Of a stretch of DNA of 64,000 nt, positions 20,594-62,810 are shown piece by piece. This stretch comes from a virus: positions 64,001-128,000 of the IMG/VR virus record IMGVR_UViG_3300017698_000036; one strand, given 5' to 3'. The position numbers and the translations under genes are program-made. The notes under the pieces are model-generated. The model did no database searches. It was not told the origin of the DNA and saw only the letters and a list, made by a program, of their open reading frames with translations. Position 1 is the stretch's first letter; each line of letters opens with the position of its first letter.

Positions 20594-20833
20594 ATGTCTA
20601 AATTCAATCATAAATCCGTAACCGATAGAGACTTCGAACCCAGAAAAGGTGAAGAGTTTGACCCTATGAATGCGATCGATCTTGCGATGGAATCTTATGA
20701 CGACCAGAGAGAGAGTGAAAACGCCTGTAGTGCCAAGAATCTCAACAGACATGCGAAAAAACTTCGTAACGTATTCACTGATGAGTATGGTATGATTTGT
20801 GATCCAACAGACGGAAAGTGGGTAGAATGTTAG
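20594..20833 (+). CDS. hypothetical protein
   Basis: 79-aa ORF with SD-like AAGG; its end overlaps the LRR copy 1 start. Confidence 0.5.
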   Translation: MSKFNHKSVTDRDFEPRKGEEFDPMNAIDLAMESYDDQRESENACSAKNLNRHAKKLRNVFTDEYGMICDPTDGKWVEC

Positions 20834-21240
20834 TAACAGCCAAACATATATTCGATGAACCCAAGATCTATCCATGGGATGTATTGGATTGGGCCGAGGA
20901 AGGACAGGTCGAATATGAAGTTGACTTGTATCTCAGAAATACCGATATAACCCACCTACCTGATAACATGACGGTCAATGGTTATTTAAATCTCTACAGT
21001 ACCAATATAACTCAACTACCTAAAGATCTACATGTTGGTGGCAACTTGTATCTCAATGATACCAACATAACTCAACTACCTAAAGATCTACATGTTGGAT
21101 ATCATTTAGTTCTCTACGGTACCAATATGGCTCAATTACCTGAAGGTCTGTATGTTGGTGGTAATTTACATCTTGGGCACGATGACAATATTAAGATTCC
21201 TGATTCTGTGGTCATAAAAGGTACAATTTGGCGTACTTGA
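20827..21240 (+). CDS. 20-aa LRR family protein, copy 1 (HIFDE/YPWD N-terminus)
   Basis: MLVTAKHIFDEPKIYPWDVLDW..EGQ, then repeats of L..TNITxLPxxLxVGGxLx. Confidence 0.8.
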   Translation: MLVTAKHIFDEPKIYPWDVLDWAEEGQVEYEVDLYLRNTDITHLPDNMTVNGYLNLYSTNITQLPKDLHVGGNLYLNDTNITQLPKDLHVGYHLVLYGTNMAQLPEGLYVGGNLHLGHDDNIKIPDSVVIKGTIWRT

Positions 21241-21262
21241 AAAAATTAATTTAAAATAATCC

Positions 21263-21291
21263 TTGACAATAAGAAAAATATATGGTATAAC
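21263..21291 (+). promoter_or_regulatory. sigma70-type promoter upstream of SSB
   Basis: TTGACA-N17-TATAAC with an AT-rich UP element. Confidence 0.75.
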
Positions 21292-21351
21292 TATAATAGA
21301 GGTAAAAACAGATTGTCTAACAATAAAGATAAAAAGGGAGAGCAAGAGGGG

Positions 21352-21483
21352 TTGAGTAATGTAAAATTCATTATTATAACGATTGTTTTCGTTATATTAG
21401 TGTTTTTATTGAATTATATTAATAAATTTAGTAACGAGGAATATGTGGTTAAACATGTTATTCCAGAAAGTGTAGGTAGATAA
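21352..21483 (+). CDS. small membrane protein (43 aa, absent from ORF track)
   Basis: TTG after GAGGGG; translates MSNVKFIIITIVFVILVFLLNYINKFSNEEYVVKHVIPESVGR. Confidence 0.45.
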   Translation: MSNVKFIIITIVFVILVFLLNYINKFSNEEYVVKHVIPESVGR

Positions 21484-21502
21484 ACACATAAGGAGAAAAA
21501 AT

Positions 21503-22249
21503 ATGAAGATTGATATGGCTAAAATGAAGGCAGCTTTCAACAGACTTAATGGTAAAGGCGGATCTGGTGTTTGGTATAAGGCAACCGATGGAGATCAAAT
21601 TAGAATCTTACCAACCGATGATGGAGTACCCCTCAAAGAGTATTTCTTTCACTACAATGTTGGTGATAAGGGGTTTCTGTGTCCCAAGAGAAATTATCAT
21701 CAGGACTGTCCTGTGTGCGATTTCGTAAGTGAGTTATTCAATTCCGGTGAAGAGGACGAGAAGGAATTTGCAAAAAATATCATGGCCAAGCCCAGATATC
21801 ACAGTATCGTCGCCGTTAGAGGTAAGGAGGGTGACGGTCCCAAGATCTGGGCCTACTCTCCAACAGTATTCAAGTCCATCTTTGGTCTTATGTTGGATGA
21901 AGAGGATTTCGGGGATATAACAGCCGTAGAGTCCGGTAACGATCTTAAGGTTTCTGTTGGTAAACAAAAAGGTCAGAAATATGCAATGGCCACAGTAAGT
22001 CCTAAGCCTACTAAAACCCCATTATCTAAATCAACCAGTGGAAGCCTGAAGGATGACGTAATTGATGTCCTTCTACGGGAGCAACCAGTCGTTCTAGACT
22101 ATTTAGATAAACTTACTTCTGAAGAGGTAGGACTTAGACTCAAACAGTTGGTAGGTAAGGAAAAAGAGACTCAGGTTGAGGTTAATACCGCCAAATCTGG
22201 ATCCATTGATGAGAAGAAGAAAGAGATCGACGAGTTTCTAAATCAATAG
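21503..22249 (+). CDS. single-stranded DNA-binding protein (T4 gp32-like)
   Basis: QIRILP, FFHY, CP...(H)..CPVC zinc site, PRYHSIV, GP.IW.Y..TVF, DIT....G.D; strong SD AAGGAG. Confidence 0.85.
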   Translation: MKIDMAKMKAAFNRLNGKGGSGVWYKATDGDQIRILPTDDGVPLKEYFFHYNVGDKGFLCPKRNYHQDCPVCDFVSELFNSGEEDEKEFAKNIMAKPRYHSIVAVRGKEGDGPKIWAYSPTVFKSIFGLMLDEEDFGDITAVESGNDLKVSVGKQKGQKYAMATVSPKPTKTPLSKSTSGSLKDDVIDVLLREQPVVLDYLDKLTSEEVGLRLKQLVGKEKETQVEVNTAKSGSIDEKKKEIDEFLNQ

Positions 22250-22327
22250 TAGGATAATCGTTTCTTATATATTAACTTAGCTTAACATTTTTTTATTTCA
22301 ATATACAATTAGGAGAAAAGAGGGACG

Positions 22328-23497
22328 ATGGCTAGAAAGACTAAAACTAGTAGTAAGAATACGTCCGGTATGAGTTTTAGAGAGAAGTACGCAAAGAAAC
22401 ATGGTGCCCTCTCTACGTCTGAAAACAGTGCGGTTGATATGTGGATTCCAACTGGTTCAAGATGGTTGGATTCCATTATTAACGCAGGATCAATGGCCGG
22501 CATTCCCACAGGTAAGATTACCGAGCTGGCAGGGGAGGAGTCAACCGGTAAGTCGTATTTGGGTATGCAGATTGCAAAAAACGCTTTAGATATGGGCCTG
22601 ATGGTAGTATATCTGGACTCTGAGTCTACATATGATGACACTTTCATGGAAAAGGTTGGGATAGACCCAGAGAATGAAAGGTTTATTCACGCACCAGCCG
22701 GAACAGTAGAGAACGTGTTTGAGGTTATAGACGATATGACTAAGGAGGCTATCGAGGCCGAGACCAGGGTTGTTGTTATATGGGACTCAGTGGCCAATAC
22801 ACCTTCAAAGGTAGAGATGGCAGGAGACTTCAACCCCAACTCATCCGTGGCCGTAACCCCTAGAATTATTTCATTGGGGTTCAAAAAACTAACTCAGACG
22901 ATGGGACAGACTAAGACCACGTTGATTTGTTTGAATCAACTTAAAACTAAAATTCATACCGGACCCAATGCACATATTGCGGCAATGTTGGATCCATGGA
23001 GTGCCCCAGGGGGGAAAGGTATACCTTATAACGCTTCGATGAGAATATGGCTAACCAAGAGAAAGTCCAAATCTTCATTTGTTTATGACGACAATGGATA
23101 CAGGATTGGATCCGAGGTTAAATGTACTATCAAGAAGTCACGGTTTGGTAGTGAGGGACGTGTTTGTACGTTTAAGATCCTTTGGGGAGGGGATGAGGTC
23201 CGTGTTGCCGATGAAGAGAGTTGGTTTGAGGCTCTTAAGACATCTGATAGTCTTTCGGTTGGTGCATGGTGTAATCTTCTCGACACTGACGGTAATGTCA
23301 TTGGAGGTCAGTTTAGATCGAAAGATTGGTTAAAGAAGCTTGAGGATCCTGCGTTTAGAGCACGCGTGGAAGAGTTGATGGACGAGGAGGTTATATACAA
23401 ATTCCACTCTAGGAAAGGTAAGGCTAGTGATTATTATACATTGGAAGATGATCGGGAGGGGGAACATCCTATTGAACCGACCATAGAAGAGGATTAA
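22328..23497 (+). CDS. recA: RecA/UvsX recombinase
   Basis: IPTGS..LD, G.ITELAGEESTGKS (Walker A), VVIWDSVA (Walker B), NQLK, PGGKG..Y.AS.RI.L. Confidence 0.95.
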   Translation: MARKTKTSSKNTSGMSFREKYAKKHGALSTSENSAVDMWIPTGSRWLDSIINAGSMAGIPTGKITELAGEESTGKSYLGMQIAKNALDMGLMVVYLDSESTYDDTFMEKVGIDPENERFIHAPAGTVENVFEVIDDMTKEAIEAETRVVVIWDSVANTPSKVEMAGDFNPNSSVAVTPRIISLGFKKLTQTMGQTKTTLICLNQLKTKIHTGPNAHIAAMLDPWSAPGGKGIPYNASMRIWLTKRKSKSSFVYDDNGYRIGSEVKCTIKKSRFGSEGRVCTFKILWGGDEVRVADEESWFEALKTSDSLSVGAWCNLLDTDGNVIGGQFRSKDWLKKLEDPAFRARVEELMDEEVIYKFHSRKGKASDYYTLEDDREGEHPIEPTIEED

Positions 23498-23508
23498 TTT
23501 TTTAAACT

Positions 23509-23528
23509 AAGGGTCCGTAAGGGCCCTT
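23509..23528 (+). terminator. terminator-like hairpin after recA
   Basis: AAGGGTCC-GTAA-GGGCCCTT (GNRA loop) followed by ctttat. Confidence 0.6.
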
Positions 23529-23534
23529 CTTTAT

Positions 23535-24533: not shown

Positions 24534-24758
24534 ATGGAGTCTAGATGTCCCTACTGTAGAGAGATATATTGGAAGATATTTGTACAACGACCCTTTAAGG
24601 TTATTATAGATGGAGTACTTGAGACTGTGAATTTTGACAATGTACCTTATTGTCGATTTTGTAAGAGAGATGTACTGGAGATTAAACATATCATAATGGT
24701 AGAGAACTATCTGGATAAGAAATATAACGGTAAGGCTATATGGAGGAGAGATGAGTAA
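24534..24758 (+). CDS. small zinc-ribbon protein
   Basis: CPYC...CRFC, 74 aa. Confidence 0.55.
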   Translation: MESRCPYCREIYWKIFVQRPFKVIIDGVLETVNFDNVPYCRFCKRDVLEIKHIIMVENYLDKKYNGKAIWRRDE

Positions 24759-26592
24759 CGCAAACGGTGGTATGGTAAACTTTGCCAATTTCGGTACTAA
24801 GTTTCAAAGAAAATTAGGACAGGTTATGTTTGAGGAACATCTCTTCGCAGATCAGATGTTTGAGGTACTGGAGAATGAGTTCTTTACCGTTGGTTACGTT
24901 AGAGAGTTTATTAGATCCATAAAGGACTACAAGGAGAAATATGGAGTATTTCCCTCGTATGATATAATGGATACCGTTATAACAACTCAGATGGATGATA
25001 TGTCTGACATTGTTAAAAAACAGGTAATGGAATATTTCACCGATATGAAGAGTTCTGTTGTACAGGATAAGGAGTTCATAAAGGGAAATAGTTTAGACTT
25101 CTGTAAAAGACAAGCCTTAAAAAGGGCCCTCCTAGAGGTGGTGGGTTCGGTTGAGTCTGGTTCGTATGAAGATGCAGCCCGTACAATTGAATCCGCCCTG
25201 GCCTTGGGATCGAACAGAGATATGGGTCATACCATTATTGATGACTTCGAGGCCAGATATATGTTACAGCCAAGAGTACCAATACCCACAGGACAGAAGG
25301 CCTTGGATGATCTTATCGGTGGTGGATTGGCTAAGAAGGAGTTCGGTATTTTCGTTGGTGGAACAGGATGCCACGCTAGGGGGGCGGAGATCATGTTGTA
25401 TAGTGGTGATACACTATTGGTGGAGGATGTTAGGGTCGGTGAACTCCTCATGGGCCCTGATGGAAGAAGTAGGGTGGTTACGAGATTGTATAGAGGTACC
25501 TCTGACATGTATAGAATTACACCTGATGTAGGTAAATCTTTTGTGGTCAACGGAGAACATATACTGTCCTTAAAACACTATAAGACTGGTAAGGTGGTGA
25601 ATTTAAGTGTCAATGCTTACCGTGATAGGAACGATGAGTTTAAGTCTATTTATAAATTGTACAAGGTTATAATTGATAGGGATTTGGGAGACGAATTTAT
25701 TGATCGTCAACCAAGTAAGGATTCTCTATTATCAGATTTCAGACTAAGCTCAGAGGGGAGGGATGACTTTTTTGGGTTTAATCTTTCTGGTGATCATCTA
25801 TATTTGATGTCTGATTTCACAGTCACACACAACTCAGGCAAGAGTATTCAAATGGTTAATTTCGCTACTGATGCTATTTTGAACGGATATAATGTAATTT
25901 ATTATACCTTAGAACTTCAAGACAGTGTGGTGGGTAAAAGGTTTGATAGTTGTATAACTGGATTCCCTATGAGTGAGTTAGACAGCAACAAGGAGTTTGT
26001 ATATCAGGGTTTATCGGACAAGGTAACCGGTAAATTGATAATCAAAGAGTATCCGCCTGGTTACTGTACTGTGGCTATGATGAAGAATCATATTGAGAAA
26101 ACGTCTAGAACCCTGTTCAAGCCGGATTTAATCATTGTGGATTATGCTGATATTATGAAGGTGGTGGTCAGTAAGGGAGATTCGCGATATGATGCATTGG
26201 GATCCCTATATACTGAATTGAGGGGAATCGCCTCTCATTACAATGTGGCTTTATGGACAGTATCTCAGGTTAACAGAACCGGGTACTCTTCTGAGTTAGT
26301 ATCGGTTGATAATTTAAGCGACGCGTTCAATAAGGCCTTCATTGCCGATTTAATTGTGACTCTACAGAGAAGCCCTGCACAAAAACAAAAGAATGAGGCG
26401 ACATTCTTCTTGGCTAAAAATCGTAATGGTCCTGACGGTATAATACTTAAGGGACGGGTTAATCCTGGATGTATGCAGGTTAATATTGATGGTGAGAAGT
26501 CGTTTGAGGAACATAGTACTGACCAGAAGGACCTACAGAAGGACCTTAAGGATAGGATATTCAATAAATTCTCCAATCTCAAGAATTCTTAA
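24751..26592 (+). CDS. dnaB: DnaB-like replicative helicase (gp41-like) containing an intein
   Basis: IPTG...LD..IGGG, split Walker A GGTG/SGKS, YYTLEL, IIVDYADI, WTVSQVNR, KNRNGPDG. Confidence 0.93.
   Translation: MSNANGGMVNFANFGTKFQRKLGQVMFEEHLFADQMFEVLENEFFTVGYVREFIRSIKDYKEKYGVFPSYDIMDTVITTQMDDMSDIVKKQVMEYFTDMKSSVVQDKEFIKGNSLDFCKRQALKRALLEVVGSVESGSYEDAARTIESALALGSNRDMGHTIIDDFEARYMLQPRVPIPTGQKALDDLIGGGLAKKEFGIFVGGTGCHARGAEIMLYSGDTLLVEDVRVGELLMGPDGRSRVVTRLYRGTSDMYRITPDVGKSFVVNGEHILSLKHYKTGKVVNLSVNAYRDRNDEFKSIYKLYKVIIDRDLGDEFIDRQPSKDSLLSDFRLSSEGRDDFFGFNLSGDHLYLMSDFTVTHNSGKSIQMVNFATDAILNGYNVIYYTLELQDSVVGKRFDSCITGFPMSELDSNKEFVYQGLSDKVTGKLIIKEYPPGYCTVAMMKNHIEKTSRTLFKPDLIIVDYADIMKVVVSKGDSRYDALGSLYTELRGIASHYNVALWTVSQVNRTGYSSELVSVDNLSDAFNKAFIADLIVTLQRSPAQKQKNEATFFLAKNRNGPDGIILKGRVNPGCMQVNIDGEKSFEEHSTDQKDLQKDLKDRIFNKFSNLKNS
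25369..25833 (+). mobile_element. mini-intein (155 aa) in the DnaB P-loop
   Basis: Starts CHARG, has block B VNGEHIL and ends VTHN followed by Ser+1. Removal restores GGTGSGKS. No LAGLIDADG domain. Confidence 0.92.
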
Positions 26593-32249: not shown

Positions 32250-32317
32250 TTAAATTAATCCTTGACAACTGAATAAAAATGGGGTATAACTAAGTAAGGA
32301 AGGATAGATTTATCATG
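32250..32317 (+). promoter_or_regulatory. promoter+RBS module repeated at 62449-62516
   Basis: TTGACA (32262) N17 TATAAC. 49 bp are identical to 62449-62497, with only 3 mismatches over the 68 bp through the ATG. Confidence 0.9.
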
Positions 32318-32671
32318 ATTGTAACAACCGAACATATATTCGATGAAGTTAAGATTTACCCGTGGGATATATTGGATTGGGTTGAGGAGGGTCAAACTGA
32401 GTACGGTAATGATTTAAATCTCAGATATACCGATATAACACACTTACCCGACAATATGAAAGTTGATGGTTATTTAGATCTCAGAGGTACCAACATAGCT
32501 CAATTACCCGACAATCTGCGAGTCGAGTATGGATTAAACCTTGGAGATACAAATATAACTGACTTACCCGATGACCTGTATGTTGGTGGTAGTTTAACTC
32601 TCAGTAATACCAATATGGCTGACTTACCGGTACAGGATAGTGTGTTTGTTGGAATGGAGATATTCAGATGA
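32315..32671 (+). CDS. 20-aa LRR family protein, copy 2
   Basis: MIVTTEHIFDEVKIYPWD; ends VGMEIFR with an ATGA overlap. Confidence 0.8.
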   Translation: MIVTTEHIFDEVKIYPWDILDWVEEGQTEYGNDLNLRYTDITHLPDNMKVDGYLDLRGTNIAQLPDNLRVEYGLNLGDTNITDLPDDLYVGGSLTLSNTNMADLPVQDSVFVGMEIFR

Positions 32672-33033
32672 TTGTAACAACCGAACATATATTTGACGAG
32701 TGTGTACCTAGAGTTTACCCGTGGGATGTATTTGAAAACATTTATGAAGGTCAGACTAGGTATTGTAACGATATAGATTTTTATGATACCGGTATAACCC
32801 ATTTACCAGATAATATGATCTATGAGGGTCATTTAGATTTAGAAGATAATACTGACATAATTGAACTGCCTGATAACATGACGGTCGATGGCTATTTGGA
32901 CATTAGAAGAACCAAAATATCTAAACTGCCTAATCACTTAAAGGTTCGTTGTTGGTTAAATACTGAAGATACCGGTATATGTAGTATTCCGGATACTGTA
33001 GAGGTGGGAGGGGTGACATATCTTGATAATTAA
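32668..33033 (+). CDS. 20-aa LRR family protein, copy 3
   Basis: MIVTTEHIFDECVPRVYPWD; first 26 nt identical to copy 2. Confidence 0.8.
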   Translation: MIVTTEHIFDECVPRVYPWDVFENIYEGQTRYCNDIDFYDTGITHLPDNMIYEGHLDLEDNTDIIELPDNMTVDGYLDIRRTKISKLPNHLKVRCWLNTEDTGICSIPDTVEVGGVTYLDN

Positions 33034-33342: not shown

Positions 33343-33717
33343 ATGGGTCGTAAGAGAAAAAACTTTAAATACAAACTCCTATTAACTCACGATATAGAGT
33401 CGGAGTGTTCGTACATAAAGACAGTTACGTCTAAATATTTTACTAAGTATGAAGTGGGCGGAGTTGAGTATCTTGTCAGTAAGAGATTTTATGGTTTAAA
33501 GGGGGAATATGACGACGAGAAGACCGTCGGATATAGTACTCTGACTGGAGACTCCGTTTATGTGTTTGTCGATGAATGGTACATGTACCTGGAGACCTAT
33601 AACGACGATATGCATAAGATACTATCTGGACCTTGCAAAACATTCAACGATAAGGTAAAGAGGTTTATTCCGGTGGCCTTAAATAGAGCTGCGTTACTAA
33701 GGAAGTTTATAAAATGA
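33343..33717 (+). CDS. hypothetical protein
   Basis: SD AGGAG; 124 aa. Confidence 0.55.
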   Translation: MGRKRKNFKYKLLLTHDIESECSYIKTVTSKYFTKYEVGGVEYLVSKRFYGLKGEYDDEKTVGYSTLTGDSVYVFVDEWYMYLETYNDDMHKILSGPCKTFNDKVKRFIPVALNRAALLRKFIK

Positions 33718-34100
33718 AAACTGAAGCTCGTAAAACTACGGCCAATTACCTGGGTAAGTACGACATTAGAATATCCGGATATGCGATGGATATGTTTGAT
33801 ATACCTTATTCAGATTCGTCCAATTTTTACAAACTAAACCCATCAGATAGATTAGAGGTACTGTGTAAGGCGATCACCTATATATTGAGAGCCGGTAGCG
33901 AATATCGAGGTACACCAAGTTACTTAAAGGTAACATACTACGATTGTTATGACTGGCTTAATATGACTATAGCCAAGGTGTTAGCCAATATAGGTCCTAG
34001 TACTGATCTGTTGTGTGAGGACAATTACAATTTGGGTTATTTAAGATTCAGGCTTAAACCCGCAGATGATGGAAGGTTTTCTTTATTTTCTAAAAACTGA
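33714..34100 (+). CDS. hypothetical protein with DDGRFSLFS tail
   Basis: C-terminal motif; start overlaps the previous gene. Confidence 0.55.
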   Translation: MKTEARKTTANYLGKYDIRISGYAMDMFDIPYSDSSNFYKLNPSDRLEVLCKAITYILRAGSEYRGTPSYLKVTYYDCYDWLNMTIAKVLANIGPSTDLLCEDNYNLGYLRFRLKPADDGRFSLFSKN

Positions 34101-34117: not shown

Positions 34118-34591
34118 TTGAGATTTATAAATTATGTTAAAAATAATAGTAAGTTGGAGTGGTTGGTCGATGACGTAGACAATCCAACTAGGATCATGTT
34201 TTGTTATCTAGGATCATATTCTAATCGATCCGGTACAGAAAAATGTCAGAAGTTCGTGGATAAGTATGGAGATAATAGGATCAAAAAGAAATTTCCCGTG
34301 TTTGAGGTAGATTTCGTATTTGATCACACTTGGTTATGGGAGTCATCTGCAGGTTGGGTATGTAAGGATGTTGACACCGATGAAGAGTTTAGGGTGTCTA
34401 TTGTAGACCAGGACGGTTTAATGGATAGGGTAGAACTCGTAAGAACAATAGAGGGAAACGGTGATGTCGACGACAAGAAAGTGTATCGTATGAAGGGTTT
34501 TTATCGTAAGAAGTCAAGTTATGTATACTTTATTCCGTTCGTTGGAAGTATAAATGAAGTATACAAACCAAAGGCACATCAATTATTTTAA
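34118..34591 (+). CDS. hypothetical protein ending in AHQLF
   Basis: TTG after GAGGAGG; 157 aa. Confidence 0.55.
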   Translation: MRFINYVKNNSKLEWLVDDVDNPTRIMFCYLGSYSNRSGTEKCQKFVDKYGDNRIKKKFPVFEVDFVFDHTWLWESSAGWVCKDVDTDEEFRVSIVDQDGLMDRVELVRTIEGNGDVDDKKVYRMKGFYRKKSSYVYFIPFVGSINEVYKPKAHQLF

Positions 34592-54262: not shown

Positions 54263-54290
54263 TTGACATATCGATATGATGGGGTATAAT
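54263..54290 (+). promoter_or_regulatory. sigma70-type promoter upstream of LRR copies 4-5
   Basis: TTGACA-N16-TATAAT, GGGG before -10. Confidence 0.75.
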
Positions 54291-54339: not shown

Positions 54340-54879
54340 ATGAAGATGAACAAGCTTGACGGTTTAAGGGTATCACTCATGGATGTATGTGAAAATCTTT
54401 ATGGTACCATGGTTTTTGATCACGGCATTATTATATACGAAGGTTCCCTGTCCTTACGCAATTCCGACATAACACATCTTCCAGACAACTTTTATGTAAA
54501 CGGAGGCCTGAACATAGGTGGGTCTAAGATGACACAGTTACCAGGAAATTTAACTGTCCACGATCATTTCAATTTGTCCCACACCAATATTACAGAACTC
54601 CCAGATGATTTAAAGGTTGGTAAGTGGTTGAATGTTCGTGGTTCTAAGGTGACTAAAATTCCGGACAATATGACTGTAAATGGTACCTTTATTGCGGCCG
54701 CCACACCGTTAGAGCTCTTACCAGGTGGTCTACATGTACGTGAGGGTTTGGATTTGTCAAACACCAATATTACAAAATTACCCGATGATCTAATTGTGGA
54801 TGGTTGGTTAGATATTAGAAACACCAATATAACCAACATTCCTGAAACCGTGAAGATTGGTGGAGAGATATTTAGATGA
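54340..54879 (+). CDS. 20-aa LRR family protein, copy 4 (different N-terminus, about 7 repeats)
   Basis: ITHLPDNFYVNGGLN repeats; ends IGGEIFR with an ATGA overlap. Confidence 0.8.
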   Translation: MKMNKLDGLRVSLMDVCENLYGTMVFDHGIIIYEGSLSLRNSDITHLPDNFYVNGGLNIGGSKMTQLPGNLTVHDHFNLSHTNITELPDDLKVGKWLNVRGSKVTKIPDNMTVNGTFIAAATPLELLPGGLHVREGLDLSNTNITKLPDDLIVDGWLDIRNTNITNIPETVKIGGEIFR

Positions 54880-55286
54880 TCACAACAACCAGGCATATAT
54901 TCGACGAACCCAAAGTCTATCCGTGGGACATACTTGAATGGGTTAAGGAGGGACAGAGATGCTATGATGGACCAGTTGATCTGTCTCTTGAACATGTAAC
55001 CCACCTTCCGTATGGTATGGAGGTAAATGGTGCGTTGGATTTAGAGAACTCACATTTAACCGTTCTCCCTAGCGGTTTACGTGTTGAAGATTGGTTAGAT
55101 CTCAGTGGTACCAACATAACTCATTTACCTGATGATCTATATGTTGGTGGTAGTTTGTATCTCGGTGGTACAAATATAACTCATTTACCCGACAATCTAG
55201 AGGTTGGAGGTAGTTTAGATATAAGAAACACCAACATTGTTGACATTCCAGATACTGTAAAGGTGCTCAGGAGGATAATAAGATGA
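54876..55286 (+). CDS. 20-aa LRR family protein, copy 5
   Basis: MITTTRHIFDEPKVYPWD; ends RRIIR followed by ATGA. Confidence 0.8.
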   Translation: MITTTRHIFDEPKVYPWDILEWVKEGQRCYDGPVDLSLEHVTHLPYGMEVNGALDLENSHLTVLPSGLRVEDWLDLSGTNITHLPDDLYVGGSLYLGGTNITHLPDNLEVGGSLDIRNTNIVDIPDTVKVLRRIIR

Positions 55287-55931: not shown

Positions 55932-55960
55932 TTGACAAACGGGTCAATATCGGGTATAAT
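55932..55960 (+). promoter_or_regulatory. sigma70-type promoter upstream of LRR copies 6-7
   Basis: TTGACA-N17-TATAAT. Confidence 0.75.
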
Positions 55961-55982: not shown

Positions 55983-56339
55983 ATGTTAGTAACAACCGAA
56001 CATATATTTGACGAGTGTATACCTAGAATTTATCCATGGGATGTATTGGATTGGGTCGAGGAGCGCCAAACTAGGTACCATCGTAGTTTATTTCTCAGAG
56101 ATACTAACATAACTCATTTACCTGACAATATGACAGTTAATGGTTGTTTAAATCTCAGAGATACTAACATAACTCATTTACCTAATAATCTAAAAGTTAT
56201 TGGTGATTTATATCTAGACAGAACCAACATAACTAAATTACCCAACGATCTATATGTTGGTGGTAATTTAGATTTATATGGTATCAATATAACCAACATG
56301 CCTGAGAGTGTACGTGTTGGTGGAGAGATAATAAGATGA
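55983..56339 (+). CDS. 20-aa LRR family protein, copy 6
   Basis: ATG 55983 after GAGAGG; MLVTTEHIFDECIPRIYPWD; 31-nt direct repeat with 60-nt period (56093/56153); ends VGGEIIR with ATGA. Confidence 0.8.
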   Translation: MLVTTEHIFDECIPRIYPWDVLDWVEERQTRYHRSLFLRDTNITHLPDNMTVNGCLNLRDTNITHLPNNLKVIGDLYLDRTNITKLPNDLYVGGNLDLYGINITNMPESVRVGGEIIR

Positions 56340-56842
56340 ATTTATATGAGGCATTAGAAAAAGACTATCCTGGAAGATTTTACGAAGATCAAAAAGAGTT
56401 TGGTTGTAGTTTATATCCTCATAATAAAACAAACTTATTACCTGTTTCCATGACGGTGTTGGGTGACCTTAATTTAGAAAACACAAGGGTGGATAAACTG
56501 CCAGAGTTTCTGATTGTGAGTGGTACTTTGGATATTAGAGGTACCAAGATAAGAACCTTGTCCAATGTGATAAAGGTTGGTAGAGGTCTACAGGCTTCTC
56601 ACTCTAAATTGACGTCTTTACCAGACAACCTCCACGTTGCTTACTTAGACATTAGTAGCACCGACGTAGAGGAGTTACCTGTGGGGTTAGTAGTAGATGG
56701 TTATGTTGACGTAACAAATACACGTATCACAAGTATTCCGAATGATAGTTTGATCGGAGGTAGAATTTATTCAAAAAAACCTCTTGACAAACCAAAAAAA
56801 ATAGACTATAACTATAGTATGATTGGTTACAAAGTAATTTAA
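56336..56842 (+). CDS. 20-aa LRR family protein, copy 7 (divergent, different N-terminus)
   Basis: LP..MTVLGDLNLENT, LPEFLIVSGTLDIRGT, LPVGLVVDGYVDVTNT repeats. Confidence 0.7.
   Translation: MNLYEALEKDYPGRFYEDQKEFGCSLYPHNKTNLLPVSMTVLGDLNLENTRVDKLPEFLIVSGTLDIRGTKIRTLSNVIKVGRGLQASHSKLTSLPDNLHVAYLDISSTDVEELPVGLVVDGYVDVTNTRITSIPNDSLIGGRIYSKKPLDKPKKIDYNYSMIGYKVI
56784..56812 (+). promoter_or_regulatory. sigma70-type promoter embedded in the end of LRR copy 7
   Basis: TTGACA-N17-TATAAC. Confidence 0.6.
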
Positions 56843-56869
56843 TTTTAACAATTTCACAGAATGGAGTTA
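56835..56869 (+). repeat. 35-bp leader repeat, copy 1 (copy 2 at 57751-57785)
   Basis: TAATTTAATTTTAACAATTTCACAGAATGGAGTTA is identical in both copies, then 1 mismatch and GTATGA. Confidence 0.95.
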
Positions 56870-56872
56870 GGT

Positions 56873-57718
56873 ATGAAAACGTTTGAGGAGTTTAAACAAG
56901 ATGTTTTAAATCCATATCTCAAGGATAAGGGTATTGAGGTTGGTAATACTATTAGCACTACACTGTCTGTTAAGTTCGACAATGAGGCCGACTTTCGTCG
57001 TTTGGCCCTGAGTGATGAAGAGAAAAATATCCTTAGTCATTGTATAAAAATTAACTATTTTGTCAGAGATGTCGAAATAGATTCTGCCGAAAAGAAATAC
57101 AATAACGGTTTTGACGAAACTGTCGAGCTTGTTGAGTTAACCGGGTCGGTTCTTTATTGTCAAGAGGAAATGACCATTGGTCTAAGTTCAATCATTGTCG
57201 ATGAGCGTCTTTTTGATATATATGACAGACTGAATACTGATACCAATACTGCCTCAACCGATGCGGTGACTCTGTTGAATGGAGTTTTGAATACATTGGT
57301 GGAGTTATATAATTATAATATGGCTATCCCTTATCGTGATTCAAAAAGCTGTCTAGACCTAAGTTTTTCATCGATCGATAAAGTTTATAAGATTTCTCAT
57401 ATCGATGAAGAATACATTACAGACCTTATAGACAAGGATTCGGATTACAACACATTTAGATATAATTTAGACTATCTGGATATTCAACAATGGGCCCTCA
57501 AGCGTGGCATGGATGTGTTTAAATACCGTATCATTGACGAATCACCAAACACGTTCAAGTCAAGAATGTCCAAACGTAATAATGATATATTCGAACATAT
57601 TCAGATCGAGCACTATAAACCGTTGGTTCCTGGTCAAACCTACCCAAATGTGTATAGTGGTGAAGTTCGTCATGGTAAAAGGACACTGGGAATGAGTGTT
57701 GACTTGATCGTACAGTAG
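56873..57718 (+). CDS. hypothetical protein, paralog A
   Basis: Shares EKKY, LY.YN, FRYN.D..DIQQWA...G.DV.KY..ID, RNND.F....EH.KPL with ORF 57789. Start chosen by GGAG spacing. Confidence 0.7.
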   Translation: MKTFEEFKQDVLNPYLKDKGIEVGNTISTTLSVKFDNEADFRRLALSDEEKNILSHCIKINYFVRDVEIDSAEKKYNNGFDETVELVELTGSVLYCQEEMTIGLSSIIVDERLFDIYDRLNTDTNTASTDAVTLLNGVLNTLVELYNYNMAIPYRDSKSCLDLSFSSIDKVYKISHIDEEYITDLIDKDSDYNTFRYNLDYLDIQQWALKRGMDVFKYRIIDESPNTFKSRMSKRNNDIFEHIQIEHYKPLVPGQTYPNVYSGEVRHGKRTLGMSVDLIVQ

Positions 57719-57750
57719 AGCTTGTAATACAACTTATGTTGTGGTGTATA

Positions 57751-57785
57751 TAATTTAATTTTAACAATTTCACAGAATGGAGTTA
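57751..57785 (+). repeat. 35-bp leader repeat, copy 2
   Basis: Identical to 56835-56869. Confidence 0.95.
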
Positions 57786-57788
57786 AGT

Positions 57789-58664
57789 ATGAGTAAAAAG
57801 AGTTTTAAAAGTTTCCTTAAAGATATCGTTGAACCTTACATGAAAGATAGAGGTCTTGCAAAAGGAAAGGTGGTTAAACTTGATTATGCGTTTGACGTCT
57901 TCAATGAGAAAGATCCGGATAAGTATGAGAATGTTCAGGGAGTCGTTGACAAACTGGCCAACCATGGTAACGTTATGAATTACATGTTCATCACGGATAT
58001 TGATTTAGAGCCACTAGAGAAGAAGTACGATGGCGGTTTGGAGAAAGAGTACTCAAGACTTGTTGATGAGACGACACTCCACGCCCAGGAGGAGTTCAAT
58101 CTCAGTATCTTCAAGACTGTGGTAATGGGTAAATTCTTTAAATATGTTAAAGAGTTGTCTGAGGACGACGAAGAGATGGGTAGGGTCTTCAACGATAACA
58201 TTATCGACAAACCCATCGACCTGTATCACTATAATGTCATTCTTCCTGAGAAAGACAAAGTGACATGTAACCCCAAATATACCAACATGTTTGACATTGT
58301 CAAACATGGTACCAGGGAATATGCGTCCATCGCCAAGACTATGCTTCTCAAAGAGGCTGGCAACTCATTTAGGTACAATTTTGATCTGGTCGATATTCAA
58401 CAATGGGCCAGAGACAATGGTATCGATGTGTCCAAATATAAACTTATCGATGGTACCAAAGAGGACCTCATAAGTCGTATTGAACACAGAAACAATGATA
58501 CCTTCAAGGGTGTTGAGTTGGAACACTTAAAACCACTGGCTCACAATGCGAAGTATCAACGTAATGGTCTTATCGATCAGAAAACCGTTAAAGGCGTGAA
58601 TGAAGACGCTAAAGACGGTGGTGCGAGGGTTCGTGTTAACGTTAAGGTTGATATCGTAGGGTAG
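57789..58664 (+). CDS. hypothetical protein, paralog B
   Basis: Shares the blocks listed for paralog A. Confidence 0.7.
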   Translation: MSKKSFKSFLKDIVEPYMKDRGLAKGKVVKLDYAFDVFNEKDPDKYENVQGVVDKLANHGNVMNYMFITDIDLEPLEKKYDGGLEKEYSRLVDETTLHAQEEFNLSIFKTVVMGKFFKYVKELSEDDEEMGRVFNDNIIDKPIDLYHYNVILPEKDKVTCNPKYTNMFDIVKHGTREYASIAKTMLLKEAGNSFRYNFDLVDIQQWARDNGIDVSKYKLIDGTKEDLISRIEHRNNDTFKGVELEHLKPLAHNAKYQRNGLIDQKTVKGVNEDAKDGGARVRVNVKVDIVG

Positions 58665-58904: not shown

Positions 58905-59321
58905 GTGTTACAAGTTAATATAGAGGTGAATTACGATTCGGCCGACTTAGAGTATTATGCTGATCGAGAATTGTGTCAGACGATCATATCAGAGGTGGTC
59001 AATGATTTCAAACTAGATCGAACCGTTACATTTTATGAGTTAAATCCCAATGAAGAACATGGAATATCATTACGTAAGAATGAACAGTTGTTAGGCTTGT
59101 ATATATCATATTGTTGGATTGATAGGATTAAAGTCTTAAAAGAGTCCGAAGGTTATAACATAAACACTTTACTTCACGAATTGGCTCACATGTTACAGTA
59201 TCAACATTACTGTGATGAGAGTGTGGGAACAAGTGCACACGGTTACTATTTCACATTGGCCAAGAGAAGAATTCAAACTTGGTATAAACGAAACTATGGT
59301 GAATCTATAAGGGTTAGGTAG
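58905..59321 (+). CDS. SprT-like zinc metallopeptidase
   Basis: LLGLY, TLLHELAHMLQY, AHG..F; GTG start. Confidence 0.7.
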   Translation: MLQVNIEVNYDSADLEYYADRELCQTIISEVVNDFKLDRTVTFYELNPNEEHGISLRKNEQLLGLYISYCWIDRIKVLKESEGYNINTLLHELAHMLQYQHYCDESVGTSAHGYYFTLAKRRIQTWYKRNYGESIRVR

Positions 59322-59322
59322 T

Positions 59323-59748
59323 ATGGATATAAAGAGTAGAAAATTAAATAACAAAAATAGGAATTATTTTAAGGTATATTTCATAGTAAATAAAAGATAC
59401 AACCTGGTATGGCATGTTCGTCATGTAGAACGTTATGTGTCTGGATTTCGCAAGGGTCAAATTAAACTGAGAAAAGACATGATAAGTCTCACTAGAAACC
59501 AAGCTCAGGGGAAATTAAACCGTCTCTATTGGCGTAGTGATGATGAGCAGACATATGAAGTAGGAATCAATCAAAAAGAGTTAGAGACTTACTACGGAGG
59601 TAAAACAGATTGTGATATAAAACTCAACCCTGATTCAATAAACAGTTACAAGGTCACAGTATACCTTTCAGATTTAGAGATAGTAGAGCACTCTGTCGAC
59701 GTTACACAGTTGATTGAAAAAGATTCTGAAATGTTTTCCTTATTTTAA
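59323..59748 (+). CDS. hypothetical protein ending in MFSLF
   Basis: 141 aa; C-terminal motif; a promoter follows the stop immediately. Confidence 0.55.
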   Translation: MDIKSRKLNNKNRNYFKVYFIVNKRYNLVWHVRHVERYVSGFRKGQIKLRKDMISLTRNQAQGKLNRLYWRSDDEQTYEVGINQKELETYYGGKTDCDIKLNPDSINSYKVTVYLSDLEIVEHSVDVTQLIEKDSEMFSLF

Positions 59749-59753
59749 AACTC

Positions 59754-59782
59754 TTGACAAGAGATTCAGTTTGAGGTATAAC
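59754..59782 (+). promoter_or_regulatory. sigma70-type promoter upstream of LRR copy 8
   Basis: TTGACA-N17-TATAAC, then TAAATAAGAAAGGA. Confidence 0.8.
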
Positions 59783-59806
59783 TAAATAAGAAAGGATAAT
59801 TTCATT

Positions 59807-60097
59807 ATGTTAGTACCAACCAAGCATATATTCGATGAGTGTAGAGTTTATCCATGGGATGTATTGGAATGGATTGAAGAAGGTCAAACTGACTATATCG
59901 GTAGTTTAACTCTCAGAAATACCAATATAACCCATTTACCCAATAACATGACGGTCGATGGTTGGTTAGATCTCAGGGGTACCAACATGGTTCAACTGCC
60001 CGATTATCTATATGTTGGTGGCGGTTTGTTTCTCGGTGGTACAAATATAATTAACATACCAGAAAGTGTATTTGTTGGTGGAGAGATATTCAGATGA
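59807..60097 (+). CDS. 20-aa LRR family protein, copy 8
   Basis: MLVPTKHIFDECRVYPWD; ends VGGEIFR with ATGA. Confidence 0.8.
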   Translation: MLVPTKHIFDECRVYPWDVLEWIEEGQTDYIGSLTLRNTNITHLPNNMTVDGWLDLRGTNMVQLPDYLYVGGGLFLGGTNIINIPESVFVGGEIFR

Positions 60098-60363
60098 CTT
60101 ATAGCAGGGTAAAAACCTACATACTCATACTATTCGGTAAACCTACATTTGAAAATCCGGATGAAGAAGGTGTAGAGTGTTACGAGTATATAATAGATAG
60201 ACATATTAGGTTGTTCTTCTTCTTCGATCCAGATGACGTTAAATATTTATTACTTTCATCTTCTAGTGGATTCACGGAAGGTGTTGTGCGTGGTGAAGAG
60301 GACGTTAGGAGGGTGTTTGAATTACTCAAGGAGACACGTAAGGAGTATGAGACGTATGAGTAG
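60094..60363 (+). CDS. hypothetical protein
   Basis: ATGA-coupled to LRR copy 8; 89 aa. Confidence 0.5.
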   Translation: MTYSRVKTYILILFGKPTFENPDEEGVECYEYIIDRHIRLFFFFDPDDVKYLLLSSSSGFTEGVVRGEEDVRRVFELLKETRKEYETYE

Positions 60364-60652
60364 ACTGTTGGTTGTGTTATTAATTGTTTTTATGGGATGT
60401 GACGACGGTAGTGTGAATGATGGTAAACAGACCAACAACACTACGATGGAGTCCGTCTGTGGAAATGGTATATTCGAGGGTCGTGAGGGTTATGAGATGG
60501 ACGATGATGGTAACATAATATCGTACTATGGTAGTCCTGTAACCTGTGAAGATTTTGCATTTGATGGTGGGACATTAATATTGAGTGATGACTGTAGGGT
60601 TGACTTTACGGATTGTATATGTTTACCCGACAATCCTTACTGTAATGAATAA
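60356..60652 (+). CDS. lipoprotein with cysteine-rich CGNG repeat
   Basis: MSRLLVVLLIVFMG-C lipobox; VCGNGIFEG.E...TCEDFAFDGGTL...DC..DFTDC. Confidence 0.7.
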   Translation: MSRLLVVLLIVFMGCDDGSVNDGKQTNNTTMESVCGNGIFEGREGYEMDDDGNIISYYGSPVTCEDFAFDGGTLILSDDCRVDFTDCICLPDNPYCNE

Positions 60653-60669
60653 CGAAGGGAGATGGATAT

Positions 60670-60909
60670 ATGGTTGTAACTAAAGTACTTAAGGGCTCTA
60701 CGGTGGAACTCCTCGAAACGGCCCTCAATGATTGGTTATTAAAGTATGAAGGTATATATCACGATAATAATGTAGAGATAGTTATTACGGGTGATAGTGA
60801 CACTAATGGTTGGACTGCACTGATCAAACTACAAAAGATAGACAAAACGGTAGTGGTGAAGAATGCATACGATGCAGGTACCAGGACCGACGGATTCAGG
60901 TTCAGTTAG
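60670..60909 (+). CDS. hypothetical protein
   Basis: SD AAGGGAG; 79 aa. Confidence 0.5.
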   Translation: MVVTKVLKGSTVELLETALNDWLLKYEGIYHDNNVEIVITGDSDTNGWTALIKLQKIDKTVVVKNAYDAGTRTDGFRFS

Positions 60910-60918
60910 GAGTTTATT

Positions 60919-61119
60919 ATGGAAGGAACATATGATGGAAAAGTAACCTATCGTGACAAGGATGATATTTCTCTCTTTCTTCGGCATTGGGAGGGAGTTG
61001 ATACGGTAAGTTGGACGGCCGACGGCAAGGTTAGAATTGTGGTAGATTCATCAATGACTTCTACCGATAAGGCCCTGTGGCAAAAACGTCAATATTTTGC
61101 AAATAATCAGTTGTTTTAG
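60919..61119 (+). CDS. hypothetical protein ending in NNQLF
   Basis: SD AGGAG; C-terminal motif. Confidence 0.55.
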   Translation: MEGTYDGKVTYRDKDDISLFLRHWEGVDTVSWTADGKVRIVVDSSMTSTDKALWQKRQYFANNQLF

Positions 61120-61149
61120 TTGTGATTAAATAAAAAGATAAAAAAACAC

Positions 61150-61178
61150 TTGACTGATGTAAAGTTTATCACTATATT
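61150..61178 (+). promoter_or_regulatory. sigma70-type promoter
   Basis: TTGACT-N17-TATATT. Confidence 0.6.
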
Positions 61179-61228
61179 AAAGGTATGGGAATAAACCCAT
61201 ACTAACTTAGAATGGAAAGAGAGTTAAA

Positions 61229-61390
61229 ATGTCCAAGACTTACAGAAAACAAATTGGTAACAAGAAAATCAAAAGACAAGATAATAAAAAAGGTAGAAGA
61301 CATAATGTGAAACAGAAACTTCACGATCTTGTCAACAGTGGAGAATGTACCAACTGTGATTTTGAAATTCCAGAAACTTGGGAAGGGTAA
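61229..61390 (+). CDS. small basic protein (53 aa, absent from ORF track)
   Basis: MSKTYRKQIGNKKIKRQDNKKGRRHNVKQKLHDLVNSGECTNCDFEIPETWEG. Confidence 0.5.
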   Translation: MSKTYRKQIGNKKIKRQDNKKGRRHNVKQKLHDLVNSGECTNCDFEIPETWEG

Positions 61391-61395
61391 CTAAA

Positions 61396-61659
61396 ATGAC
61401 CAAAGTTAAAACAGGACCTAATATTTTCTCTCAAATGGAATATGGTTTGGACTCTCCATCTGCTTTAAAAAGAAAGATTGACACATTGGCAGGTACCTTG
61501 GTCGAGAAAATGAACGAGGAGTTGGATACTGATAAGTTCAAAGATATGAACTCCGACATGTTGCGACTTGTTAAAGAGGAGTTGGAGAAGGATATCAAAA
61601 AGGCTATTGATAGTGCTTTTAGTGAGTACATGAAAACTAAAAGTCATTCATTGTTTTAA
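61396..61659 (+). CDS. hypothetical protein ending in KSHSLF
   Basis: ATG 61396; helical; C-terminal motif. Confidence 0.55.
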   Translation: MTKVKTGPNIFSQMEYGLDSPSALKRKIDTLAGTLVEKMNEELDTDKFKDMNSDMLRLVKEELEKDIKKAIDSAFSEYMKTKSHSLF

Positions 61660-61706
61660 GATATAAACTGACAACGGGATAATTATTATAACAGGAGACA
61701 GAAAAT

Positions 61707-61865
61707 ATGTCAGATTTTTTATATGAAATGGAAATTATAGATAAGAATGGTAATAAGATCTTACTTAAAACCAATGATAGAACAGAGTATCAACAGTGGT
61801 TAAAAGAGTACAAATCTTCACCATCACCTCAAAAAGAATCTAGAAAGGTTCTTCTCAAAGGTTAA
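61707..61865 (+). CDS. small protein (52 aa, absent from ORF track) ending ESRKVLLKG
   Basis: SD AGGAG, 9 nt upstream of the ATG; GGATAATTA upstream. Confidence 0.55.
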   Translation: MSDFLYEMEIIDKNGNKILLKTNDRTEYQQWLKEYKSSPSPQKESRKVLLKG

Positions 61866-61874
61866 TAAGTTCAA

Positions 61875-62138
61875 TTGTTGGTCCCGCCTGTCTTTATTAC
61901 AAATCTTAAAAATATCAAAAATGTGGATGTTTGGAAACGTGAACTCGTAGAACAGTTCAAGTATTTGTTAATGACTGAAGATGGTACCATACTCGTTACT
62001 GAATTGTTGAAAGAGTTGAGTTTAACGGGTGTGGATGTGGAAGAGATAGTTGAAATGATGTACAGTAAGGTTAACGATGGTAGGTACTCTCTGTTCTCCG
62101 AAGAGTATGTTGTAGAACTAGGAGAGGAAAGGTTTTAG
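61875..62138 (+). CDS. hypothetical protein with NDGRYSLFS motif
   Basis: Motif at 62073-62099; start uncertain. Confidence 0.45.
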   Translation: MLVPPVFITNLKNIKNVDVWKRELVEQFKYLLMTEDGTILVTELLKELSLTGVDVEEIVEMMYSKVNDGRYSLFSEEYVVELGEERF

Positions 62139-62143
62139 TTCAT

Positions 62144-62452
62144 ATGTATTTCAGTGTAGCAAAACAGTTTTCAATTTTTCCAGGAGCTAGATATAGAAAG
62201 ACTTCCAATTGGAGCGCGCAAGAGTTATATGAAGATCATCTTGAAGTAATGTTAAAACAGTCTGTTAAGTATAGTATCAAACTGCACTTTGACCTAGATG
62301 GTACCTGTGGATATGGTGTTAGTTTTTTACACCAACTGGCATTCCTGATAAAAACAAATATACCGGAATCAATTCCATTTATAAGGTTTATATCAAAAGA
62401 AGAACCATATTTGGTGGAAGAATTCATGGGATATATCGACTCAATTTATTAA
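62144..62452 (+). CDS. DUF4325/STAS-like small protein
   Basis: VAKQFS.FPGARY......SA.E.....L.......DLDGT.GYG.SFL pattern. Confidence 0.55.
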   Translation: MYFSVAKQFSIFPGARYRKTSNWSAQELYEDHLEVMLKQSVKYSIKLHFDLDGTCGYGVSFLHQLAFLIKTNIPESIPFIRFISKEEPYLVEEFMGYIDSIY

Positions 62453-62516
62453 ATTAATCCTTGACAACTGAATAAAAATGGGGTATAACTAAGTAAGAAA
62501 GGACAGATTTATAATG
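62449..62516 (+). promoter_or_regulatory. promoter+RBS module repeated at 32250-32317
   Basis: TTGACA (62461) N17 TATAAC. Confidence 0.9.
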
Positions 62517-62810
62517 TTAGTAACGACCAAACATATATTCGATGATTGTATACCTAGAGTCTATCCGTGGGACGTATTTGATTGGATTGAAGAGGGTCAA
62601 ACTGAGTTCTATGGTAACTTAAGTTTTCACGAAAGTAGTATAACCCACCTACCCAACAATATGAAGGTTGAAGGTTGGTTAGATCTCACTAATACCAATA
62701 TAACTAAATTACCCGACAATCTGTACGTTGGCGGTAATTTATATATCGAAAGAACCAACATAACTAATTTACCCAACGATCTAAGACTTGTTGGGGGGGT
62801 AATAAGATGA
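62514..62810 (+). CDS. 20-aa LRR family protein, copy 9
   Basis: MLVTTKHIFDDCIPRVYPWD; ends VGGVIR with ATGA. Confidence 0.8.
   Translation: MLVTTKHIFDDCIPRVYPWDVFDWIEEGQTEFYGNLSFHESSITHLPNNMKVEGWLDLTNTNITKLPDNLYVGGNLYIERTNITNLPNDLRLVGGVIR

Follow-up and report, generated by a model that had tools for sequence, protein, structure and literature searches.

An uncultured, aquatic phage that is distantly related to T4 carries a family of small leucine-rich repeat (LRR) proteins, and the reading we favor, with slightly more confidence than doubt, is that these are ten paralogous cytoplasmic proteins made early in infection, each of which binds a different partner via its variable face. Nine of the genes lie in the window, that is, the whole stretch of 64,000 nucleotides analyzed here (positions 64,001 to 128,000 of virus record IMGVR_UViG_3300017698_000036), and positions below are those of the window unless the record is named. 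A previous reading of the sequence alone had listed nine copies, all of which proved to be intact, stop-free reading frames on translation; the family has at least ten members, however, as another copy (copy 10, 116 aa) was found 2 kb beyond the window end, at 129980-130330 of the record (L001:1980-2330). The record (138.7 kb) is only about 70% complete. The copies in the window, most of which begin with a common N-terminal segment (the leader), are as follows.

20827..21240, plus strand: LRR copy 1, 137 aa, leader and 5 repeats
32315..32671, plus strand: LRR copy 2, 118 aa, leader and 4 repeats, first gene behind a promoter
32668..33033, plus strand: LRR copy 3, 121 aa, leader and 4 repeats, ATGA-coupled to copy 2
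54340..54879, plus strand: LRR copy 4, 179 aa, 7 repeats, diverged N-terminus
54876..55286, plus strand: LRR copy 5, 136 aa, leader and 5 repeats, ATGA-coupled to copy 4
55983..56339, plus strand: LRR copy 6, 118 aa, leader and 4 repeats
56336..56842, plus strand: LRR copy 7, 168 aa, about 6 repeats, diverged N-terminus and basic C-terminal tail, ATGA-coupled to copy 6
59807..60097, plus strand: LRR copy 8, 96 aa, leader and 3 repeats
62514..62810, plus strand: LRR copy 9, 98 aa, leader and 3 repeats

The proteins are 96-179 aa long with 3-7 units of the 20-aa repeat xGxLxLxxTNITxLPDNLxV each, and the listed repeat numbers agree with the earlier estimate of about 3 to 7. The 60-nt period noted in the DNA was also reported by Tandem Repeats Finder (20979-21168, 55099-55216 and 56086-56246). 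The start of copy 1 overlaps the stop of a 79-aa ORF upstream. All the copies carry a negative net charge (-1 to -16), with pI 4.0-5.4 in eight of the ten and near neutrality in the other two; this acidity is moderate compared with the proteome median pI of 5.4, and the idea of DNA mimicry was dropped for these reasons. Judged by inspection, the copies have no signal peptide, the N-termini being polar or acidic (MLVTTEHIFDE...) and free of any hydrophobic stretch.

Structure prediction, which had been proposed as a check for a solenoid, gave confident LRR solenoids (AlphaFold pLDDT 92 for copy 5 and 84.5 for copy 4), with two short strands in every repeat of both models. When the predicted models were used for a structure search with VIA-align, every match above Z 9.9 was an LRR protein; the best was FlrP (8z5u_0, Z 15.3), followed by a Leptospira LRR, YopM, XopL, SspH1 and SlrP, and profile matches to solved LRRs were obtained for FlrP (1e-40), SHOC2 (1e-10) and SlrP (2e-8). 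Among 41 in-register 20-aa units, L4 was found in 36, L/I6 in 34, T/S9 in 39, I11 in 31, L14 in 33, P15 in 39 and V20 in 37. On the strength of these tandem repeats and the modeled solenoids, the copies belong to the leucine-rich repeat superfamily. Pfam LRR_1 exceeded its cut-off (20.6 bits) in copies 4 (22.4 bits) and 5 (21.9 bits), the other copies being below it or without a match, and in NCBIfam the models for SlrP (5e-5), XopL and XopAC were matched over their LRR part, all below threshold. DUF5649 (PF18886) was rejected, as copy 1 alone matched it at 13.2 bits (E 0.11), below the gathering cut-off of 25 bits; a metagenomic relative, P0006, carries a precomputed match to this domain. The NEL domain (PF14496) gave no match, and the proteins stop directly behind the last repeat. 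Each solenoid has an N-terminal cap formed by the leader. The first repeat behind the cap is conserved (ITHLPDNM), the internal repeats vary in number, and the last repeat, again conserved (NIPESV), is followed by the closing half-strand GGEIFR.

The leader is 30-32 aa long and common to eight of the ten copies, with 11 invariant residues that include polar ones (H7, D10, D20, E27 and Q29); the motif M[LI]xxxxHIFD[ED]..[IV]YPWD[VI] was present, as previously described, in seven copies of the window. For the remaining two, the departure from the leader was correctly seen, but they do not look like clean swaps of the N-terminus and rather resemble strongly diverged caps: copy 4 retains RV..MDV.ENLYG, matched against RVYPWDVFENIYEG of copy 3, and copy 7 retains a YP. 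AlphaFold predicts a helix and beta-hairpin cap at the N-terminus of copy 4, and in the model of copy 5 residues 10-30 of the leader pack as the solenoid cap, while residues 1-9 are predicted to be disordered yet are conserved. In an exhaustive HMM search of 1.84 billion representative proteins, the leader was absent from all except two metagenomic relatives, P0020 and P0009, apart from three low-complexity false hits; in P0009 it is internal, behind a 160-aa domain. A word search with the leader only matched nothing but the phage's own protein.

The claim that variation is concentrated at the x positions of the repeat agreed with the per-position entropy, which was 2.5-3.2 bits at positions 1, 3, 5, 7, 8, 13, 17 and 19 and 0.3-1.2 bits at positions 4, 9, 11, 14, 15 and 20. 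The variable positions (19, 1, 3, 5, 7, 8 and 13) are mostly on or around the two short strands. In the predicted fold, the hydrophobic core and the TNITxLPDNL side are constant across copies, and the residues alternating with the core along the short strands and in the next loop (19, 1, 3, 5, 7 and 8) differ between them; a constant scaffold with one variable face is what one would predict if every paralogue used that face to bind a partner of its own.

Decay of the family, which would have spoken against a function, was not observed: there were no frameshifts or stops, and the leader (pN 0.15 vs pS 0.57; dN/dS approximately 0.16) and the repeat core (pN 0.26) are under purifying selection. 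The per-site comparison showed no excess at the variable positions, where pN (0.57) and pS (0.63) were about equal, and since synonymous sites are saturated among the paralogues (pS 0.57-0.70), diversifying selection is not separable from relaxed constraint at these positions. The near saturation also indicates that the duplications are ancient and that the copies have been maintained instead of decaying. The nearest neighbor of a repeat was in another paralogue for 39 of the 41 units, usually at the same rank, indicating that whole genes were duplicated.

The 30-nt identity reported for copies 3 and 6 was confirmed, at 32674 in the former and 55989 in the latter, and the longest DNA tracts shared between copies were 35, 30, 30, 26 and 25 nt. 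These were longer than the top tracts (mean 20.6, 18.4 and 17.2 nt; maximum 31 in 60 runs) obtained when the proteins were kept and synonymous codons were resampled. As this null takes no account of shared ancestry, the proposed recombination or conversion between copies is suggested only.

Promoters of the LRR genes were called as consensus sequence matches, and the following were found.

32262..32290, plus strand: sigma-70-type promoter TTGACA-N17-TATAAC, consensus match, before copy 2
54263..54290, plus strand: promoter TTGACA-N16-TATAAT, perfect 12/12 match, before copy 4
55932..55960, plus strand: promoter TTGACA-N17-TATAAT, perfect 12/12 match, before copy 6
59754..59782, plus strand: promoter TTGACA-N17-TATAAC, consensus match, before copy 8
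62461..62489, plus strand: promoter TTGACA-N17-TATAAC, consensus match, before copy 9

Beyond 84 kb of the record there are 15 TTGACA-type sites, five of them directly before LRR genes (hypergeometric P 0.009, run with 13 promoters among 79 genes). Three further copies (3, 5 and 7) are ATGA-coupled to the preceding LRR gene, and copies 1 and 10 are without a recognizable promoter of their own. A putative late motif, AATAATTA, occurs 12 times on the plus strand and twice on the minus strand, mostly in the structural half, and never before the LRR genes; the late promoter of T4, TATAAATA, was discarded as a late signal here because it showed no strand bias (9 vs 9). The LRR genes would be transcribed early in infection from host sigma-70-type promoters. 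Because such promoters head short operons in the replication/accessory half, the LRR proteins are most likely made early, in accordance with the early expression that the sequence-only reading had assumed.

The genes are located in that half and not among the structural genes, with a gp32-like SSB, RecA/UvsX-like recombinase, 5'-3' exonuclease, DnaB, RNR, ThyX and DnaE as neighbors and with ORFans around them. A megablast search with 9 kb of sequence, covering 50,697 phage records, gave no match to a cultured relative, and no tRNAs were found in the window. In another view the genes would be mere passengers, neutral or selfish, in which a promoter and an LRR gene formed a cassette that was multiplied by recombination between repeated promoters with little benefit to the phage. 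Mobile promoter cassettes of T4-type phages spread by recombination likewise; the regions of about 70 nt before copies 2 and 9 are nearly identical, and the long identical tracts and the ORFan surroundings fit as well. Nevertheless, ten copies have stayed intact while synonymous sites became saturated, with the leader and core under strong purifying selection, and we consider such passengers very unlikely.

The constant leader raises other possibilities. The internal proteins IPI-III and Alt of T4 likewise have a constant short N-terminal peptide on divergent proteins in a phage with a gp21-type protease, and polymorphic internal proteins that have a tag in common are known from T4-type phages (PMC9026906). 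By analogy, the leader could be a capsid-targeting sequence, in which case the LRR proteins would enter the prohead, undergo trimming by the protease and reach the host together with the injected DNA. The present phage encodes a large terminase of the T4 type, a Gp23-type capsid protein and a gp21-like prohead protease (Peptidase_S77, 63.9 bits, record 57272-57793), and conservation of residues 1-9, which are predicted to be disordered, would suit a tag. MLVTTEHIFDE also resembles the start of Alt (MELITELFDE), although over a span of about 10 residues that may be due to chance. However, a conserved (L/I)xE cleavage site is lacking: the E of position 6 is replaced by K or R in five of eight copies, and that of position 11, although retained in seven of the eight, gives way to D in copy 9 and to V in P0020, with F instead of L/I at P3. 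Further points against a tag are the internal leader of P0009, the packing of residues 10-30, most of the leader, as the structural cap, and promoters that, where recognizable, are all of the early and not the late type, without the putative late motif upstream. The cap, the promoters and the missing cleavage motif set the family apart from IPI-III and Alt, and the capsid-tag explanation is judged unlikely.

The leader could also dock on one shared effector, for example a protease of the host or the phage, or else a modifying enzyme, to which the variable LRR would bring different targets, so that the family would consist of adaptors or substrate receptors in the manner of F-box-LRR or IpaH proteins. 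The phage would then maintain an inherited set of LRR binders, each variable face picking a different host protein, as an F-box- or IpaH-like substrate-receptor system acting inside a bacterium early in infection. A constant module joined to a variable LRR has this design, the invariant polar residues of the leader are not needed for a hydrophobic cap, its dN/dS is low, and bacterial proteins combine NEL ligase domains with this type of repeat. Against it, no candidate for the effector was found, most of the leader, with its mere 30 aa, is predicted to be a structural cap, and two family members have lost the motif; both the docking role and the panel built on it appear quite improbable.

Returning to the preferred reading of separate binders, we infer that the LRR copies bind proteins that their partners are host proteins or variable components of host defence, and that the conserved leader has a shared function beyond capping as well. 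The anti-defence or host-takeover repertoire proposed earlier stays conjectural, as PADLOC gave no match for the copies, PHROGs gave only two weak matches of unknown function, and the literature provided no link.

Unlike the leader, the repeat type is common in uncultured phages. The small, uncharacterized "Leucine-rich repeat" proteins of uncultured Caudovirales (BFVD A0A6J7X9U5, A0A6J7X691 and A0A6J5LZF9) and gp47 of Edwardsiella phage Edno5 share it, with 35-52% identity to the phage copies over the repeats, but they lack the HIFDE-YPWD leader and a ten-fold expansion is not known in them. The gene for gp47, a distant homologue, is located in an early-left accessory operon beside CIII/Exo/RecT, and another homologue is found in the early/accessory region of an independent phage (prophage-like contig L006). 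The ESM Atlas contains many mostly viral clusters of 120-180 aa with the same repeat type. Viral-contig scans with the family profile and with P0020 detected no related locus, exact matching with P0020 and P0009 retrieved no contig, and the scan of a single metagenome gave three loci with one 262-aa LRR gene amid radical-SAM-like genes.

The nearest solved relative is FlrP of the Vibrio polar flagellar motor (PDB 8z5u chain 0; E 1e-40, Z 15.3, rmsd 3.4 Å over 119 residues, 28% identity), which has the same 20-residue repeat, LxLxxTxIxxLPxxLxVxGx, and is likewise a small, free-standing beta-solenoid whose head and tail are short. FlrP carries a Sec signal peptide (M1-A19), is periplasmic and positively charged, fits the P ring and binds the flagellar rod as a structural spacer, not an inhibitor (bioRxiv 10.64898/2025.12.04.692373). 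That the sole characterized relative has this structural role counts against the preferred reading; the phage copies differ in having no signal peptide, mostly acidic composition, a different N-terminal module and a ten-gene family. This relationship might also suggest an FlrP mimic or an envelope or virion adhesion protein, with an extracytoplasmic site of action at the flagellum or the cell surface. Since the copies lack a signal peptide or hydrophobic N-terminus, are mostly acidic and are encoded in the replication half, such a role is highly improbable.

The NEL E3-ligase effectors (SlrP, SspH1 and IpaH) and YopM represent the short "bacterial" LRR class, in which repeats of some 20 residues with a conserved LP build a solenoid that binds targets, and the phage copies resemble them in repeat and solenoid (structural Z 9-11, with weak profile matches). 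Repeat position 9 is T in the phage copies and N in that class, and neither a catalytic domain, NEL or other, nor a secretion signal is present in the phage proteins. Longer metagenomic homologues do carry PF14496, and the targeting module of bacterial NEL E3-ligase proteins is of the same repeat type.

Multigene families of binding scaffolds have hardly been described in bacteriophages, and a literature search found no paper on a multigene LRR family in phages. Should the targets be proteins of host defence or housekeeping, the family would provide a set of natural, small and easily expressed inhibitors and would help to show which host proteins this phage lineage must neutralize. Elsewhere such families serve host manipulation or recognition, as in the ankyrin proteins of poxviruses, the IpaH effectors and the VLRs of lampreys, and the phage case is a compact one, with ten small genes, a fixed scaffold, one variable face, a private N-terminal module and what appear to be early promoters.

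Translation of the nine leucine-rich-repeat (LRR) genes proposed in the sequence-only reading showed that all of them are open and lie exactly where they had been placed, but the count of nine did not stand, because a search of the whole record recovered a tenth copy outside the window.

Window 20827, 32315, 32668, 54340, 54876, 55983, 56336, 59807 and 62514: starts of copies 1 to 9
Record 129980-130330: tenth LRR copy, 2 kb past the window end

The ten-member small-LRR family is real and well defined, with a constant scaffold, one variable face and a lineage-specific N-terminal module. Identity of the paralogues to copy 6, used as the reference, is 28-65%. With the LP dipeptide as an anchor, 41 in-register units of 20 residues were aligned across the family, which read x1 G2 x3 L4 x5 L6 x7 x8 T9 N10 I11 T12 x13 L14 P15 D16 N17 L18 x19 V20 in canonical LRR numbering, and the first (ITHLPDNM) and last repeats (N[IM]P[DE][ST]V, then GGEIFR) are each of a distinct, recognisable type. 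Repeat number varies from 3 to 7 per copy, as had been claimed, and the claimed 60-nt DNA period was detected in three copies. For 39 of the 41 units the closest unit is located in a different paralogue, usually at the same rank, indicating that the family grew by whole-gene duplication and internal change of repeat number, not by within-gene homogenisation. Directly 5′ of the tenth copy, a GC-rich hairpin is followed by a T-run in a terminator-like arrangement (L001:1900-1975 in the region past the window end, record ~129900-129975).

Variation had been claimed to concentrate at the x positions, and entropy was indeed highest (2.5-3.2 bits) at repeat positions 3, 19, 1, 13, 7, 8, 17 and 5, with minima at 15, 20, 4, 9, 14 and 11; the TNITxLPDNL half of the repeat is nearly invariable. 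Positions 19, 1, 3, 5, 7 and 8 alternate with the buried V20, G2, L4 and L6 along two strands and the subsequent loop, and therefore form one continuous exposed face.

Nei-Gojobori counts among paralogues, by region
Leader: pN 0.15, pS 0.57, dN/dS ~0.16
Core positions: pN 0.26, pS 0.62
Variable positions: pN 0.57, pS 0.63

Because synonymous sites are near saturation, the duplicates are old, and the persistence of ten intact copies implies selection to retain them; for the same reason, the counts at the variable sites do not separate positive selection from relaxed constraint.

The window spans positions 64001-128000 of an IMG/VR virus record of 138,656 bp (completeness estimated at 70% by CheckV); every long ORF is on the + strand, and G+C is ~38%. 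The large terminase of the phage is of T4 type, with Flavobacterium phage immuto and Microcystis phage Mel-JY01 as the best cultured matches (~40% identity), and a Gp23-type capsid protein and a gp21-type prohead protease are also encoded. The stretch of the window that carries the LRR genes is the replication/accessory half of the genome, where ORFans are numerous and the neighbours include a gp32-like SSB, a RecA/UvsX-like recombinase, a 5′-3′ exonuclease, DnaB (carrying a Hint insert), RNR, ThyX and a DnaE-type polymerase.

Window 24751-26592, + strand: DnaB-type helicase with a Hint (intein) domain
Record 56111-57898 (L010:340-2127): gp21-type prohead protease ORF, 595 aa

Two Peptidase_S77 matches in the protease ORF are separated by a large insert, which likewise resembles an intein or a homing endonuclease.

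Inspection of upstream sequences places the LRR genes at the head of putative early operons. A TTGACA-N16/17-TATAA(T/C) promoter lies 50-77 nt upstream of copies 2, 4, 6, 8 and 9 (two are perfect, 12/12), and the starts of copies 3, 5 and 7 share an ATGA with the stop codon of the LRR gene ahead; upstream of the tenth copy, a recognisable promoter was not found. Such promoters number 17 on the + strand versus two on the - strand, and five of the 15 + strand promoters past 84 kb precede LRR genes (P = 0.009, hypergeometric, with 13 promoters among 79 genes as input). The sequence 5′ of copies 2 and 9 is near-identical over ~70 nt. An extended near-identical early promoter family (ttaatcCTTGACAa.tgaataaaaatGGGGTATAAC) occurs at no fewer than five sites (window 29292, 32262, 38087 and 62461; record 134054), and may represent a strong extended consensus or a substrate for cassette recombination. 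The motif AATAATTA, with 12 sites on the + strand and two on the - strand, six of them in the GAATAATTA form, is probably the late promoter of the phage, the counterpart of T4 TATAAATA; its sites span record 1544-71008 (window up to ~7008) plus window 50667, mostly intergenic and ahead of structural genes, and it was not found ahead of any LRR gene. The host-type -35/-10 promoters suggest a host with conventional sigma-70, and, given the nature of Bacteroidota promoters, would argue against a Bacteroidota host.

Unrelated small ORFs ending in ...DG[KR]FSLFS(xx) or ...QLF-stop (window 33714-34100, 62807-63148, 34118-34591 and 60919-61119) are often found 3′ of an LRR gene and within its operon. 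Their tails presumably resemble sliding-clamp-binding C-termini, such as bacterial QL[SD]LF and the T4 gp45-binding tails.

The N-terminal leader, 30-32 residues long and common to eight copies, has 11 invariant positions (M1, H7, I8, F9, D10, Y17, P18, W19, D20, E27 and Q29). A HMMER search of 1.84 billion representative proteins with its profile matched the phage's own copies and two metagenomic relatives, P0020 (144 aa) and P0009 (301 aa, leader motif internal), only, apart from three low-complexity false matches; by this distribution, the leader is private to the phage lineage. A minor alternative is that it serves as a T4-like capsid tag, since the required gp21-type protease is present and the leader start is similar to that of T4 Alt. 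However, the cleavage motif is unconserved among leaders, the leader is internal in P0009, the LRR promoters are of early type, and in the AlphaFold model residues 10-30 are predicted to form an N-terminal cap (residues 1-9 are of low confidence), which would make the leader largely structural. A repertoire of binders fits the whole anatomy of the family, and an anti-defence or host-takeover role is plausible as a hypothesis.

The repeat type itself is widespread: 252 homologues of similar length have highly diverse ends, longer ones are fused to NEL and other domains, and the ESM Atlas holds many clusters, mostly viral. Among 50,697 cultured phage records, the sole clear homologue was gp47 of Edwardsiella phage Edno5 (52% identity over the repeats), which offers a cultured-phage protein open to experimental study.

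L005:3863-4606 (Edno5): gp47, 247-aa hypothetical protein, lambdoid early-left operon

It lies between the repressor region and CIII/Exo/RecT, and a second homologue is among small early genes on a prophage-like contig. On a 25-kb metagenome contig, a 262-aa protein (L002:9827-10615) is encoded among radical-SAM/SPASM-like and carbamoyltransferase-like genes; it has about ten units of this repeat type, in an ITHIGDNL variant.

Structure prediction, proposed earlier as a check for a solenoid, was run with AlphaFold and gave regular solenoids for copies 4 (pLDDT 84.5) and 5 (pLDDT 92, pTM 0.84), with two short strands per repeat at positions 19-20 and 3-5. Pfam models barely detected the family, and the family profile matched the Vibrio flagellar-rod protein FlrP (E 1e-40), SHOC2 (1e-10) and SlrP (2e-8). 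In an exhaustive structural comparison FlrP was again the top match (PDB 8z5u chain 0; Z 15.3, rmsd 3.4 Å, 119 residues), and all others above Z 9.9 were LRR proteins, including Leptospira LRRs, YopM, XopL, SspH1, SlrP and Slit. The LRR fold assignment is firm. A December 2025 preprint (bioRxiv 10.64898/2025.12.04.692373) described FlrP, which was not known before, as an LRR protein of 21.5 kDa located in the periplasm; it carries a Sec signal, has a positively charged surface and attaches to the polar flagellar motor rod. In contrast, the phage copies are without a signal peptide and mostly acidic, and therefore they are not FlrP orthologues.
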